A stretch of 64,000 bases of DNA from an uncultured Mucilaginibacter sp. (GTDB taxonomy: Bacteria > Bacteroidota > Bacteroidia > Sphingobacteriales > Sphingobacteriaceae), in NCBI GenBank assembly GCA_903915155.1, contig CAIWRU010000018.1, positions 2,344 through 66,343 on the forward strand, read 5' to 3'. A program made the position numbers and the translations under genes. Numbering within the stretch: position 1 is the stretch's first letter; each line of letters starts with the position of its first letter. Positions 3,673 to 46,673 of this stretch are shown here, one piece after another. The notes below the pieces were generated by a model that was given only the letters and a program-made list of their open reading frames with translations, was not told the DNA's origin and searched no databases.

Positions 3673-3853
3673 GATTTCACCGATTTTGATTTGATTTCAC
3701 CGATTTTGGGTGGTCAAATTTTTAACGGGGTGTTTCAAAAATACGATTTATGTTGGTTTGTATTGTAGCTGAAAAAAAATGCCTGTGAAGACACAGGCAT
3801 TGGGGCATGAGGAAAATCAATCGGTGAAGTCATTCGTCCAAATCGGTGAAATC
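3673..3853. repeat. Paired inverted 13-mer repeats in the tag-polA intergenic region
   Basis: gatttcaccgatt at 3673-3685 and 3693-3705; complements aatcggtgaagtc at 3819-3831 and aatcggtgaaatc at 3841-3853. Confidence 0.65.
3772..3801 (-). terminator. Intrinsic terminator after tag
   Basis: aatgcctgtg-aaga-cacaggcatt 10-bp stem; the adjacent A run on + gives a U tail on the minus strand. Confidence 0.75.
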
Positions 3854-4427
3854 ATTTGAAAGAGCAATCAGGCAAATGGTCATTCACCATGCCGGTGGCC
3901 TGCATGTGGGCGTAGCAAATGGTGGTGCCGAAGAATTTGAAACCGCGCTTTTTCATGTCATTGCTGATGGCATCGGATATGGGGGTGCTGGCAGGGGTAA
4001 TACCTGTAGGGTTGTTGATGGGCTTGCCATCGGGCATAAAGCTGTAGAGGTATTTATCGAATGAGCCGAATTCTTTTTGCACATCGATAAACAGTTTGGC
4101 GTTGCTGATGGACGAGGCTATTTTCAGGCGGTTACGGATGATGCCTTCATCGTTTAACAGGCGCTGTACATCTTTATCATCAAAGTCGGCTACTTTTTTT
4201 ACGTCAAAGTCGGCAAATGCTTTCCGATAGTTCTCACGGCGGCGCAGGATGGTTATCCAGCTGAGGCCCGCCTGGGCGGATTCGAGGATGAGGAACTCGA
4301 ATAGTTTTTTATCGTCGTGGGTTACTTTGCCCCATTCTTCATCGTGGTATTTGATGTATAGCGGGTCGGTTCCCGGCCAGGTGCAGCGTTTTAAGTCTTG
4401 AGTCTTAAGCCTTGAGTCTTGAGTCAT
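3852..4427 (-). CDS. tag: DNA-3-methyladenine glycosylase I
   Basis: RCTW...YHDEEWG, LFEFLILESAQAGLSW, IIRNRLKI, C-terminal NDHLPDC zinc ligands. Confidence 0.95.
   Translation of the reverse strand: MTQDSRLKTQDLKRCTWPGTDPLYIKYHDEEWGKVTHDDKKLFEFLILESAQAGLSWITILRRRENYRKAFADFDVKKVADFDDKDVQRLLNDEGIIRNRLKIASSISNAKLFIDVQKEFGSFDKYLYSFMPDGKPINNPTGITPASTPISDAISNDMKKRGFKFFGTTICYAHMQATGMVNDHLPDCSFK
4390..4424 (-). repeat. Five 7-bp tandem units inside the tag 5' end
   Basis: Minus strand ACTCAAG ACTCAAG GCTTAAG ACTCAAG ACTTAAA, translated as TQDSRLKTQDLK. Confidence 0.85.
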
Positions 4428-4790
4428 TTATTTGAATTTATCGGGATTGTTCATCATATAAATAAGTAACCGTGTGATTTCCTCACTTTGCTGGTTTAGT
4501 TCTGCATATTTTTCATTTGAAATATAGTTACATGCTAAGGAGGCATCAAGCCATGCTTGGGTTTCCCCATTTTCCATATCAGCATCGCTAAGTTTACTAA
4601 TCAAATGATTGGGGTATCTTCTCTTTTTATAAGCTTCTGCAACTGATGCTAATACTGATCTTGAAGACCGTCTTATTTGATCCACCAAACTATATGTTTC
4701 TTCTTTGGGAAAATTCTTTGTTAAAAAGAATATTTCCATTGATAATGAAAAAGCTTTCTTATAAACTATCAAATCTCTGAATGAACTCAT
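4428..4790 (-). CDS. Four helix bundle protein (23S rRNA IVS protein / bAvd-like family)
   Basis: SFRDLIVYKKA...FPKEETYSLVDQIRRSSRSV...E..Y signature; 120 aa; AT-rich; stop abuts the tag ATG. Confidence 0.9.
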   Translation of the reverse strand: MSSFRDLIVYKKAFSLSMEIFFLTKNFPKEETYSLVDQIRRSSRSVLASVAEAYKKRRYPNHLISKLSDADMENGETQAWLDASLACNYISNEKYAELNQQSEEITRLLIYMMNNPDKFK

Positions 4791-4800
4791 ACTTTTTGGC

Positions 4801-4828
4801 TTAGGACTAAGTGCTCAAGACTTTGGAC
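4801..4828. repeat. Degenerate 7-bp array upstream of the four helix bundle gene, inverted relative to 4390-4424
   Basis: + strand ttaggac taagtgc tcaagac tttggac. Confidence 0.65.
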
Positions 4829-4888
4829 TAAATTTATAAATCTTTATTGTAAAAATATTTAAATTGCTAAAAATTTTATCAAAGCATT

Positions 4889-5266
4889 ATGGAAAGTTTA
4901 TCGCCAAATATTTTTGTTCGGGACATGAATAAAACTATTGAATTTTATAAACAATTAGGATTTGCAGTAACCATGAGCGTACCTGAAACAGGTAACGAAT
5001 TGGTTTGGGCAATGATGACTAACAGCAGTGTTACCTTTATGTTCCAAACTTTTGACAGCCTGGCCGATGACCTGCCGGAGATAAGCCGACAAGATGGCGG
5101 ATCACTTTTGTTGTACATTAACCTGAAAGGAATAACCGCGTTTTTTGAGTCGGTAAAAGACAAGGTGCAGGTGTTAAAAGGGCCTGAAAAAACTTTTTAC
5201 GGCGCTACCGAGTTTTCTATTTTGGATAACAACAATTATGTGTTGACTTTTGCCGAACATGAGTAG
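4889..5266 (+). CDS. VOC / glyoxalase-bleomycin resistance family protein
   Basis: LSPNIFVRDMNKTIEFYKQLGF and KTFYGATEFSILDNNNYVLTF pattern. Confidence 0.85.
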   Translation: MESLSPNIFVRDMNKTIEFYKQLGFAVTMSVPETGNELVWAMMTNSSVTFMFQTFDSLADDLPEISRQDGGSLLLYINLKGITAFFESVKDKVQVLKGPEKTFYGATEFSILDNNNYVLTFAEHE

Positions 5267-5630
5267 CCCTATTATATTTAAACGTGTTGACCACATCCAC
5301 ATTGCCGTACCATCTGAGAAACTGGAGGAAGCGAAGAATTTCTATACCGATGTAATTGGTTTGGAACTGATCGACCGGCCGAACCACCTTTTTACCACCG
5401 CGGGTTATTGGTTCAATATTGGCAATGTACAATTGCACGTTGGTGTCGAACCGCAAATGCCTGTTTCAACCCGGCATACAGCTTTTGAGGTGGCTGATGT
5501 GGATGCGGCGCTAAATTACCTGAAAGATAAAGTGCAAATACTGGCAGAGCCTGTTATCCCCGGTCGCAGGCGCTTTGCGTTCCTTGATCCGTTTGGTAAC
5601 CGAATAGAATTGCTACAGTTATTGGGCTAA
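5250..5630 (+). CDS. VOC / glyoxalase family protein
   Basis: RVDHIHIAV, FYTDVIGL, QLHVG, HTAFEV, FLDPFGNRIEL metal-binding pattern. Confidence 0.9.
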   Translation: MPNMSSPIIFKRVDHIHIAVPSEKLEEAKNFYTDVIGLELIDRPNHLFTTAGYWFNIGNVQLHVGVEPQMPVSTRHTAFEVADVDAALNYLKDKVQILAEPVIPGRRRFAFLDPFGNRIELLQLLG

Positions 5631-23356: not shown

Positions 23357-23986
23357 ATGATACAAGTATTCGCAAACAACCCCTACCAGGAGAACACCAT
23401 AGTTTTATACGACGACAGCGGCGAGTGCGCCATCATCGACCCGGGTATGTACACGGCAGCGGAACAGAACGCGGTGGTGAACTTTATCCGCGATAAGGGC
23501 CTTAAACCGGTGCTGCTGCTCAACACGCATTGCCATATTGACCATGTGCTGGGCAACCGCTTTGTATTCGACCAGTATGGCCTCAAGCCGCAATTCAACA
23601 TCGGCGAGCAGGAGATACTGGATGCCGTGCCTGCCTATGCACCGAGTATGGGGTTCAGGTATGAACTATCGCCACTGCCCGAGGTGTATTTGCCCGAGAC
23701 AGGCACCATAAGCTTTGGCAACACTACTTTGGAACTGATATTCGCGCCGGGGCACTCGCCCGCGCATTTGTGCTTTTATAACCGCAAGGATAATATACTG
23801 GTGGGCGGCGATGTGCTGTTCCGCGGTAGTGTTGGTCGCAGTGATTTGCCGGGCGGCAATCATTTGCTGCTGTTGAAGAACATTGAGGAGAAATTATTCA
23901 CACTTCCGGGTGATTGTACGGTGTATCCTGGTCATGGCCCGGAAACAACTATAGGTTACGAAAAAGAAACCAATCCCTTTTTTTAA
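23357..23986 (+). CDS. MBL-fold metallo-hydrolase (glyoxalase II / YcbL-like)
   Basis: THCHIDH, PGHSP, GDVLF, PGHG. Confidence 0.93.
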   Translation: MIQVFANNPYQENTIVLYDDSGECAIIDPGMYTAAEQNAVVNFIRDKGLKPVLLLNTHCHIDHVLGNRFVFDQYGLKPQFNIGEQEILDAVPAYAPSMGFRYELSPLPEVYLPETGTISFGNTTLELIFAPGHSPAHLCFYNRKDNILVGGDVLFRGSVGRSDLPGGNHLLLLKNIEEKLFTLPGDCTVYPGHGPETTIGYEKETNPFF

Positions 23987-23997
23987 CTTAGCGGGGA

Positions 23998-24072
23998 GAA
24001 GTTAAAAGTAGAAAGTCAAAAGTTCTTTGCGCTTTAAACTTTCGACTTTGAACTTTAAACTTTAAACTATAC
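23998..24072. repeat. Inverted 7-bp repeat arrays
   Basis: gaagtta aaagtag aaagtca aaagttc / gctttaa actttcg actttga actttaa actttaa actatac. Confidence 0.75.
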
Positions 24073-24075
24073 AAT

Positions 24076-25299
24076 TTGAATACATCGGTCTATATAGCTA
24101 AGCGGTACCTTTTTTCGCGGAAGAAGATGAACGCCATTAATATCATCTCGGGCATAAGTATGCTGGGGGTGTTTATCGGCAGCGCGACGCTGGTTATTAT
24201 TTTGTCGGTTTTCAACGGTTTTGAGCATGTGATACTGGGGCTCTACAGCAACTTCACCCCCGAACTAAAGATTGAACCTCGCCTCGGTAAAACCTTTGAT
24301 CCTACTGCACCATATTTCGCTCAGATACATAAGGATGCACACGTATTTTCCTATACCGAGGTCTTGCAGGAAAAGGCGCTGATGATGTACAGCAACAAGC
24401 AGTTCATCGGCACCATAAAGGGCGTTAGCGACGATTTTTTAAAAAATAAACAACTCGATAGCACTATACAGGATGGCTCATTTACTTTAAAAACGGGCGG
24501 TTTAAATTACGCGGTTATTGGCGGCACGGTAGCGGGCAGCCTGGGGGTGAATTTGAACAGCCCAGACCCATTGCGCATTTACGCGCCAAACCGTAACGCC
24601 ATGGGTGGCTCCGACCCGCTGAATGAGTTTGTGGTGCGCAGTATTGATCCCTCGGGCGTGTTTACCATTCAGGCCGATTTTGATGATATAGCGGTTACCC
24701 CCATCAGTTTCGCCCGTGACCTGTTGAAGCAGCCCGTGAATGTAACCTCGATAGAAATTAATTATAAAAAGGGCACTAACCTGGATATTGTGCAACAGGA
24801 AGTGCAGGATAAAATAGGCAATAAATATACGGTGAAGAACCGCATTCAGCAGGATACCGAATTATACAAAACATTAAACTACGAACGTTGGTTTATATTC
24901 ATGATACTGGTTTTTGTGCTCATCATCGCCATATTCAACATCATAGGCTCGTTAACCATGCTGGTGATAGACAAACGGAAGGACATAGCCGTATTGAGCA
25001 GCCTGGGCGCAGGGAAAAGGCTGGTGCAGGGCATCTTCTTTTTTGAGGGAATGATGATATCGGGCATTGGTTGTATAGCGGGGATGGTGCTGGGGTTGGC
25101 GTTTTGCCTTTTACAGCAACATTATGGTTGGATAAAAATGGGCGGCAACATGACCGTAATTGATGCCTACCCCATTGAGCTAAGAGCCACGGATTTTGTG
25201 ATGGTACTGTTAACAGTTGGGGTAATAGCAGTAATAGCATCGGGCATTAGCGCCAAGTTGAGCGTGAAGGGATTGGATGATATTAAAGGGGAGTTGTAG
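24076..25299 (+). CDS. LolC/LolE-like (FtsX family) ABC permease
   Basis: IAKRYLFS, LSVFNGF, IAIFNIIGSLTMLVIDKRKDIAVLSSLGA; four TMs. Confidence 0.88.
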   Translation: MNTSVYIAKRYLFSRKKMNAINIISGISMLGVFIGSATLVIILSVFNGFEHVILGLYSNFTPELKIEPRLGKTFDPTAPYFAQIHKDAHVFSYTEVLQEKALMMYSNKQFIGTIKGVSDDFLKNKQLDSTIQDGSFTLKTGGLNYAVIGGTVAGSLGVNLNSPDPLRIYAPNRNAMGGSDPLNEFVVRSIDPSGVFTIQADFDDIAVTPISFARDLLKQPVNVTSIEINYKKGTNLDIVQQEVQDKIGNKYTVKNRIQQDTELYKTLNYERWFIFMILVFVLIIAIFNIIGSLTMLVIDKRKDIAVLSSLGAGKRLVQGIFFFEGMMISGIGCIAGMVLGLAFCLLQQHYGWIKMGGNMTVIDAYPIELRATDFVMVLLTVGVIAVIASGISAKLSVKGLDDIKGEL

Positions 25300-25303
25300 T
25301 GTT

Positions 25304-25445
25304 GAGGTGAAAGCTGAAAGGCGAAAGGTATTTAATTTAACAGTTGAAAAATAGAATAAACAATATATATTGCAGATGCGATGGGGGATTAGAATTATCG
25401 GCTGTAAAAAAGCTTTAACCTTTCGCCTTTAACCTTTTACCTTCA
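25304..25445. repeat. Inverted 7-bp repeat arrays upstream of rbfA
   Basis: gaggtga aagctga aaggcga aaggtat (25304-25331) / agcttta acctttc gccttta acctttt accttca (25411-25445). Confidence 0.75.
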
Positions 25446-25451
25446 AAAGAC

Positions 25452-25823
25452 ATGGAATCAAAACGTCAGCAAAAATTCGCCGGGGTAATTCAACAGGACC
25501 TGGCCGCCATATTTCAGCGCGAGGGCAACAATTATTTGCCAAATACAATGGTTACCATAACAAAGGTTCGCGTAACGCCCGACCTGGCCATAGCACGCAT
25601 ATTCTTAAGCTTTTTTGGTAATGCCAACGCACAGCTGGCTTTGCAAACCATTAAACAGCACGCATCAGAAATACGCTACAAATTAGGCTCGCGCATAAAA
25701 GACCAGGTGCGCATTATACCGCAGCTTGAATTTTTTGTGGACGATACCAGCGAATACGTCGACCGCATGGACAAGATATTCGACAAGCTAAACAAAGAGG
25801 AACGCCAAAAAGATCCGGAGTAA
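25452..25823 (+). CDS. rbfA: Ribosome-binding factor A
   Basis: VTITKVRVTPDLAIARIFLS, RIIPQLEFFVD. Confidence 0.95.
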   Translation: MESKRQQKFAGVIQQDLAAIFQREGNNYLPNTMVTITKVRVTPDLAIARIFLSFFGNANAQLALQTIKQHASEIRYKLGSRIKDQVRIIPQLEFFVDDTSEYVDRMDKIFDKLNKEERQKDPE

Positions 25824-46500: not shown

Positions 46501-46673
46501 GATGTGCAAATATGCAGATGTGCAAATGTGCGGATTTTATTAATTATTGAATTACTGATTTATTGAATTATTGAATGGGTTGGTGCCATTCCTTCTACAT
46601 TACCAACCGTGAAATTCATCTGCACATCCGCACATCTGCACATTTGCACATCCTTCTTGCATATCTGCACATC
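46501..46673. repeat. Inverted 8-bp repeat arrays enclosing a second 8-bp array
   Basis: gatgtgca-type x4 (46501-46535), attattga-type x4 (46543-46576), tgcacatc-type x6 (46617-46673). Confidence 0.8.

Follow-up and report, generated by a model that had tools for sequence, protein, structure and literature searches.

In the window, by which we mean the whole stretch of 64,000 nucleotides that was analysed, a gene for a four-helix-bundle (4HB) protein lies between two inverted arrays of short tandem units. We refer to the arrays as the 5′ and 3′ arms, and to the gene with its arms as the cassette. The features of the locus are as follows.

4854–4882, minus strand: weak match to a sigma-70-like promoter (9/12 positions; the consensus is not of the Bacteroidota type), lying upstream of the 5′ arm
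4801–4832, minus strand: 5′ arm, decayed, about 4.5 heptamers in 32 nt (AGTCCAA AGTCTTG AGCACTT AGTCCTA AGCC)
4428–4790, minus strand: 4HB gene, 120 aa, TIGR02436/PF05635, Avd-like
4389–4427, minus strand: 3′ arm, ATG and ACTCAAG-type heptamers, equal to Tag residues 1–13 (MTQDSRLKTQDLK)
3852–4427, minus strand: tag, DNA-3-methyladenine glycosylase I, 191 aa, whose ATG abuts the 4HB stop codon (TAAATG)
3778–3801, minus strand: terminator-like hairpin and T-run 3′ of tag, from a consensus scan only
Downstream of tag: 937-aa ORF, read as polA from its translation

Along the minus strand, the 5′ array (4832–4801) is followed by a 10-nt spacer, the 4HB ORF (4790–4428), the 3′ array and tag. The 5′ array is degenerate, yet its 7-nt phase is kept. 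After the 4HB TAA, the 3′ array reads ATG ACTCAAG ACTCAAG GCTTAAG ACTCAAG ACTTAAA A (4427–4389); TRF placed it at 4394–4425 with a period of 7 and 4.6 copies. The promoter-like site would place both arms on a single transcript, and the terminator-like hairpin would stop a 4HB-tag transcription unit ahead of polA. The two sites are compatible with one 4HB-tag transcript.

The 4HB ORF matched PF05635 (1.5e-30, 105.9 bits; cut-off 33.8) and TIGR02436 (93.2 bits; cut-off 24), above both curated cut-offs, and it matched bAvd at 4.6e-10 (PF22296, 40.4 bits). Solved relatives of the protein in the PDB are 2RLD (3.7e-10) and 2GSC, with five chains per entry. Tag matched PF03352 at 5e-77. No Rfam family, including those of rRNA, was matched in 3800–5000. 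The four neighbouring ORFs scanned with Pfam were Tag, the 4HB protein and two glyoxalase-family proteins, and the cassette is set between a glyoxalase-family gene on one side and tag on the other.

The arms are complementary over 28 nt (4398–4425 with 4805–4832) at 20 of the bases (71%), with a perfect 10-bp core (4393–4402 with 4814–4823), and the MFE and centroid folds both pair them. The first-pass annotation of this DNA had described complementary arrays whose stem could enclose a gene of the 23S rRNA intervening-sequence (IVS) and Avd-like family. Both points were borne out, and the stem is weak at this copy.

The tag junction across the genus

Family models of Tag begin at residue 13 (TIGR00624) or residue 17 (Pfam), and the preceding part, MTQDSRLKTQDL, is an extension. 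No in-frame ATG, GTG or TTG other than the ATG of the array was found before the conserved RC-W motif of Tag. Therefore, the array supplies the Tag start codon and the extension, in agreement with the first-pass annotation, which had read the downstream array as the Tag N-terminus. The array portion of Tag comprises the start codon and the first 12 codons.

Among 229 genomes of the genus, 34 carried an orthologue of the 4HB gene (at least 74% amino-acid identity), and in 29 of them it was directly upstream of tag. The Tag N-terminus consisted of ATG and the array, in frame, in all 27 genomes in which it was readable. It followed the pattern MT[QSK]DSRLKT[QS]DLK-RC, and most orthologues were alike in the length of 13 codons; one allele was longer by exactly 21 nt, equal to three units. 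The distance from the 4HB stop codon to the Tag ATG was 4 nt or less in 19/27. In most relatives, the upstream gene terminates within the 5′ arm (…WDELSLES*).

Arms in the orthologous cassettes were typically 26–39 nt long, mostly longer and stronger than those in the window, and the unit of their 5′ arms was AGTCTTR, repeated 4–5 times. The 5′ arm in the window was the most decayed of the 34. Most relatives have another, co-directional gene upstream of the cassette. Here, the glyoxalase-family gene is now divergent, and this rearrangement of the upstream neighbour is probably why the 5′ arm decayed. The glyoxalase-family gene itself (4889–5630, plus strand) is co-directional upstream of the cassette in two relatives (G068 and G098), which suggests an inversion in this lineage with a breakpoint at the 5′ arm.

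Among the orthologues, dN/dS of the 4HB gene was about 0.05 at a saturated dS of about 2; judged from these rates, the gene is under strong purifying selection. The 5′ arms shared 6-mers at 0.35, compared with 0.08 for the adjacent spacer. As this sharing persists despite the saturated dS, the arms are maintained.

Four other states were seen at tag loci devoid of the 4HB gene. The first, at four loci, was a gene-less GTTGGCA/TGCCAAC hairpin. The second, a hybrid at one locus, combined a 5′ arm of the GTTGGCA family with a remnant of ACTCAAG type within Tag. In the third, at four loci, the first codons of Tag retained decayed pieces of arm units. The fourth was non-syntenic, with a Tag N-terminus of 6–8 residues. 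In the first state, the 3′ arm of the TGCCAAC family also gives ATG and a Tag extension of 13–14 residues. The GTTGGCA family forms the arms of a paralogous 4HB clade (57–66% identical) upstream of nadD. The extension is therefore independent of the presence of the 4HB gene. The first-pass annotation had named, as evidence against its reading, relatives without the gene that have the same Tag extension and arrays. This was partly borne out: relatives lacking the gene do keep an array-encoded extension, made of units from another family.

In a tree of the Tag protein (177 aa, poorly resolved), filled alleles were spread over the entire tree. The cassette was inherited along with tag through much of the genus, and its 3′ arm was taken over as the first codons of Tag. 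In one genome (G246), the cassette follows the usual upstream gene and its 3′ arm is the N-terminus of a different protein.

Many orthologous cassettes (six loci and others) also have a partial "anti-arm", cgactttagatt…, located 20–40 nt upstream of the 4HB ATG and missing from the window copy. Local pairing of this sequence with the 5′ arm is possible; it is an alternative to the long-range stem and would free the 3′ arm, hence the Tag start.

Relocation and the genome-wide class of hairpins

A second junction, between a NeuB-like and a sterol-desaturase-like gene, holds an orthologous 4HB cassette in five relatives (G167, G085, G238, G123 and G007). These cassettes have AGTCTTR/GACTYAA arms and the spacer motif cgactttRgRttt, as at tag. 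In G007, the copy at the second junction is a pseudogene, and an intact copy is retained at tag. The second-junction copies formed one group in a maximum-likelihood tree (support 73/94; core 100/97), with the two G007 copies in different clades. Other species show an empty gap of 13–15 nt at this junction (four loci), a gene-less hairpin of the same unit family as the cassette arms (one locus), arm remnants (three loci) or, in some, unrelated REP-like inserts. No flanking direct repeat or target duplication was visible between filled and empty alleles at the second junction. A third 4HB clade, with arms of AGTRGC hexamers, was found upstream of both folC and metF.

Thus, the gene and its arm family were copied at least once to another intercistronic junction, and gene and arms behave as one relocatable unit. 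The first-pass annotation had taken the cassette for a small self-contained mobile or RNA-processing element, and had suggested looking for empty alleles at tag. Empty alleles were seen at the second junction. A discrete unit of gene and arms, present at a second junction in five relatives, agrees with mobility; "self-contained" is not demonstrated, as neither an enzyme nor a target duplication was found. The observation of an armed 4HB gene with an array-built Tag start is confirmed, and the interpretation as a whole is partly supported.

The tag and NeuB-desaturase junctions in relatives also host other repeats (noted at 12 loci, one of them in G186). These include a REP-like palindrome pair, gtcattgcgaggaacgaagcaa…, and a 4–5-fold tandem tagagacgcaatgctttgcgtcttt attaaaaaacgcgg. 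Small hairpin repeats of various kinds thus settle in these two gaps, which are hot spots for them in general.

Within the genome of the window, all 11 PF05635 genes were bracketed by inverted arrays of 7–8-nt units, and the unit differed from locus to locus. Arrays of 2.9 or more units detected by TRF in this genome numbered 362 for heptamers and 145 for octamers, and there were 82 strict inverted pairs. Their loop lengths were bimodal: 73 were 140 nt or shorter, none fell in 141–340 nt, and 9 were 341–600 nt. Seven of the nine long-loop hairpins were 4HB genes. The 73 gene-less hairpins use unit families of resident 4HB arms. For some gene-less families (GATGTGCA and AGATATG), the cognate 4HB gene is absent here and present in relatives. 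Arms had 4–5 units in 145 of 164 cases, and the mean arm was 4.4 units (30.7 nt) for heptamers and 4.3 units (34.2 nt) for octamers. These means are too similar to tell a constant unit number, which would hint at measurement by the protein, from a constant arm length, which would hint at RNase III.

The G-rich arm came first in 73/82 hairpins, on either strand. The stop codon of a long ORF lay in or just before the first arm in 49/82, compared with 4.7% of random placements, and first arms were richer in stop triplets (3.2 vs 2.0). A general role of 5′ arms as suppliers of stops in all frames, with 3′ arms open in all frames, was rejected because the families ATTTCGA, GATGTGCA and GTTCATG have no stop triplets.

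Fit to the intercistronic gap was measured on 59 cassettes from nine genomes. A co-directional upstream stop codon was located 30 nt or less before the 5′ arm in 39 and inside the arm in 12 (51/59 in total), and the next ATG was a median of about 6 nt past the 3′ arm in 50/59. A translated, read-through arm was found in 4/59, two of which were tag cassettes. The cassette therefore exactly fills the intercistronic gap, and the translated arm is exceptional. The first-pass annotation needs correcting here, as the cassette does not insert at gene starts.

Several individual hairpins were observed. In the window, two consecutive gaps of one operon (23999–24068 and 25305–25443) each contain a gene-less heptamer hairpin, with units AAGTAAA/CTTTAAA and AGGTGAA/CTTTAAC, respectively. 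The surrounding ORFs are 23357–23986, 24076–25299 and 25452–25823; the first arm begins about 6–13 nt past the stop codon, and the second ends about 8 nt before the start codon. A nested structure at 46501–46652 of the window has GATGTGCA ×4.4 and CATCTGCA ×4.5 arms around an array of TTATTGAA ×5. In relatives, GATGTGCA is the arm family of the 4HB clade MSDKPNLIVDLTF…, and this clade is absent from this genome. The nuoA-nuoB gap (contig C68, 4360–4875) holds a gene-less AGTCTTA/GACTTAA hairpin of the unit family of the tag cassette, with a solo TCTTGAY array ahead of it. Two hairpins of the ATTTCGA type that lie outside the window have loops of 505–536 nt and no 4HB gene (contig C93, 13480–14100; contig C69, 6505–7100). 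One loop holds an ORF of 148 aa with a signal peptide on the opposite strand, and the other has no ORF of at least 60 aa. These loops may represent other cargo or a decayed gene.

We compared protein identity with the sharing of arm 6-mers among 68 cassettes pairwise, using only pairs whose flanks lacked tblastx similarity.

Protein identity <45%: arm 6-mer sharing 0.02–0.03 (about 2100 pairs)
Protein identity 45–60%: arm 6-mer sharing 0.08 (70 pairs)
Protein identity 60–75%: arm 6-mer sharing 0.27 (40 pairs)
Protein identity ≥75%: arm 6-mer sharing 0.62 (20 pairs)

Pairs within a genome showed the same trend (Spearman rho 0.15, p = 0.016). Arm sharing rises with protein identity, indicating that gene and arms share their history as a unit. 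Changes in the unit have spread to all units of both arms, indicating concerted evolution. Such co-divergence is also expected from common descent of a duplicated unit and is not in itself a proof of recognition.

Proposed explanation and its rivals

We lean slightly towards the explanation that the locus is a resident hairpin-armed cassette, in which a TIGR02436 4HB gene lies within inverted arrays of 4–5 heptamers between protein-coding cistrons. In the 4HB-tag transcript, the arms would pair across the ORF, over about 30 bp in relatives and at about 20 of 28 positions here. The Tag ATG immediately follows the 4HB stop codon, where the 3′ arm has its inner end, and translation of Tag may be coupled to that of the 4HB gene by termination-reinitiation. 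A stem of this length, we infer by analogy with the Coxiella IVS, for which this was shown, would be a substrate for cellular RNase III. Movement between junctions, we infer, would need no dedicated transposase; arms of one unit family could recombine, so that a gene-less hairpin is converted into a gene-bearing one. As an oligomer, the 4HB protein may recognise its own repeat unit. The several gene-less families of this genome that have no cognate 4HB gene count against the cassette explanation. So do the mismatch counts, the small advantage in pairing of own arms and the predicted loss of the Tag ATG on cleavage, all given below, as well as the decay of the 5′ arm in the window.

Alternatively, the cassette could be a pure RNA-processing element, its arms serving solely as a site at which RNase III cuts the 4HB mRNA out of the operon transcript and its mobility being irrelevant. 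We regard this as possible but doubtful. The genome has an RNase III gene (rnc), and a long-range stem of the leader with the 3′ arm was predicted by MFE folding in 33/34 orthologous cassettes, in the window copy too. The IVSs of Coxiella, Leptospira and Salmonella provide a precedent (PMC4990558), and RNase III processing at this locus is only an analogy with those of 23S rRNA. Mismatches in the sense-strand stems of 97 cassettes comprised 108 G·U and 131 A·C (p = 0.15), and 36 gene-less hairpins with an inferable transcribed strand had 27 G·U and 28 A·C. The wobble signature of more G·U than A·C was thus absent in the 97 cassettes and 36 hairpins, so that these counts do not demonstrate selection for a helix in RNA. 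In addition, a cut in mid-stem would part the Tag ATG from the coding region, and the layout is kept in 29 species. The mismatch counts and the loss of the ATG on cleavage count against a purely RNA-level role, which also leaves unexplained the 73 gene-less hairpins with shared unit families and the composition of the arms as tandem arrays. Arm pairing within a species was only slightly stronger than between species (−38.6 vs −37.1 kcal/mol, permutation p = 0.02); as a test of covariation, this comparison was set aside, its effect being small because all orthologues share the unit family.

A DNA-level alternative is that the arms are REP/MITE-like hairpin or cruciform sites mobilised in trans, for example by a Y1/RAYT-type transposase, with the 4HB gene as a passenger or accessory. 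For each gene-bearing hairpin there are about 8 without a gene, hairpins are concentrated at gene ends (the 49/82 given above), the mismatch spectrum is strand-symmetric, turnover among species is high at the two junctions, and the genome has five Y1_Tnp genes. However, none of the five was seen to adjoin a heptamer hairpin, one of them being located between two short arrays of another repeat (CGCGTGT/ACACGCG), and no target-site duplication was found. Nor does this alternative explain why each 4HB gene occupies the loop of a hairpin and invariably points the same way as the adjacent genes, or why the arm units track the protein clade. We consider it unlikely.

The heptamer run in Tag might be a contingency (phase-variation) tract, in which gain or loss of 7 nt switches Tag off or on, given that 7 is not a multiple of three and that the tract lies between the sole ATG and the conserved core. 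This is very improbable. The units are imperfect (4.6 copies with variants), similar arrays occupy non-coding gaps in 50/59 cassettes, and the longer Tag allele differs by a whole three units. We rejected slippage of units as a source of Tag phase variation, because the readable orthologues are uniformly in frame.

Pairing at the window locus alone would be marginal. Its ungapped inverted-repeat score was 10, which was reached by 28 of 1234 control ORFs of a size similar to the 4HB gene (2.3%), none of the 28 showing periodicity as well, and the fold z-score of the whole cassette was −1.79. Eight of the nine intact 4HB genes in the genome, that is, all others, scored 16–32, values reached by 0–2/1234 controls. 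Scores in the 34 orthologous cassettes ranged from 10 to 28.5, the window copy being the lowest. Pairing at the window locus is therefore secured by the family context and by the scores of the orthologues. The energy of the flanks in RNAduplex was rejected as a chance statistic (−27.8 kcal/mol for the window; 637/1234 controls as low) and was replaced by the ungapped score and periodicity, as it is confounded by GC-rich spurious ORFs. Chance low-complexity sequence, with arrays and gene unrelated, has a negligible probability and was rejected on the paralogue scores against controls and on the retention of arms in 33 orthologous cassettes despite the saturated dS.

Relation to known systems

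Among the "hypothetical" families of Bacteroidota, cyanobacteria and proteobacteria, PF05635/TIGR02436 ranks with the commonest. To our knowledge, its only known contexts are diversity-generating retroelements (DGRs) and rRNA intervening sequences, the latter of an origin that has been unexplained for more than 30 years. We found no paper in literature searches that links this family to arrays outside rRNA.

The closest comparison is with the ORF-bearing 23S rRNA IVSs of Coxiella and Leptospira ("S23p"). In the IVS of Coxiella burnetii (23S helix 45), RNase III excises the element with cuts in mid-stem, the stem is 28 bp long, its region carries tandem GACAGAT heptamers, and the element was proposed to have once been mobile (PMC4990558). 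The cassette shares with these IVSs the protein family in the loop, a terminal inverted-repeat stem of about 28–33 bp with tandem heptamers in the stem region, and a size of about 430–520 nt. The terminal repeats enclose the ORF as a stem, as in the MFE folds described above. In contrast to an insertion in a 23S rRNA helix (9, 25 or 45), the cassette lies between protein-coding genes, its host being an mRNA intercistronic gap. Its arms overlap the stop and start codons of the neighbours and one arm is translated, and purifying selection on its 4HB gene is strong, in contrast to the decay of the ORF in Coxiella.

PF05635 has been recognised as Avd-like (PMC10053308), and the DGR accessory protein Avd (bAvd) has a homologous four-helix-bundle fold (PF22296). 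The window 4HB protein scored 32 bits against the equivalog model NF033474, below its cut-off of 80, and no reverse transcriptase or template/variable repeat was seen beside the gene, where four ORFs were scanned with Pfam. It thus falls outside DGR Avd, for which a match to NF033474 and linkage to a DGR reverse transcriptase are expected.

REP/BIME elements with RAYT and MITEs resemble the hairpins in being abundant, short and intergenic, at gene ends, with rapid turnover of presence and absence. They differ in that the arms here are tandem arrays with a unit that varies by family, and in that neither terminal inverted repeats with target duplication nor a linked transposase were seen here. 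The 4HB protein has no known catalytic motif. With no target duplication at the second locus and no transposase in the cassette, the element does not qualify as a MITE or insertion sequence.

Inverted heptamer arrays in Xanthomonas and Nostoc (GGGAATC / GGGGAYT) were interpreted as G-quadruplex formers, and no gene family was named (PMC4692102). They are likewise tandem heptamers with about 4 units preferred, between co-directional ORFs, with the G-rich array after the stop codon and dozens of convergent pairs that can form stem-loops (PMC4692102). In the present class, units are not prone to form G4 structures, and some members carry the 4HB gene. We group the cyanobacterial STRR repeats with these arrays as a near comparison. 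Repeat hairpins between bacterial genes, with or without a 4HB gene, form a large class that is essentially undescribed.

We tentatively raise a broader possibility, that 4HB (Avd-like) proteins and inverted short-tandem-repeat hairpins are one system. The protein, as an oligomer, would recognise a clade-specific unit present 4–5 times per arm; gene-bearing hairpins would be autonomous and gene-less ones their derivatives; the gene would move between hairpins of one unit family by recombination of arm with arm; and the elements would settle harmlessly in operons. If this is true, the system would take in the 23S rRNA IVSs as well as the heptamer arrays known from Xanthomonas and cyanobacteria, and settling in operons would go as far as an arm that provides a housekeeping enzyme with its start codon and N-terminus.

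The locus contributes the exaptation of an arm for the start and N-terminus of such an enzyme, the replacement of one arm family by another at a single junction, and the co-divergence of protein clade and repeat unit. One genus offers a tractable system: two junctions with alleles that are filled, empty, reduced to a hairpin or reduced to remnants, clades matched to units, and a housekeeping enzyme with a translation start built from the element. The function of IVS proteins and heptamer arrays becomes a question for experiments on binding, processing and coupling. For annotation, start codons and N-termini beside such arrays are easily miscalled. PF05635 genes are also present, unremarked, inside operons, one example being the capsule locus of Riemerella (PMC13688083).
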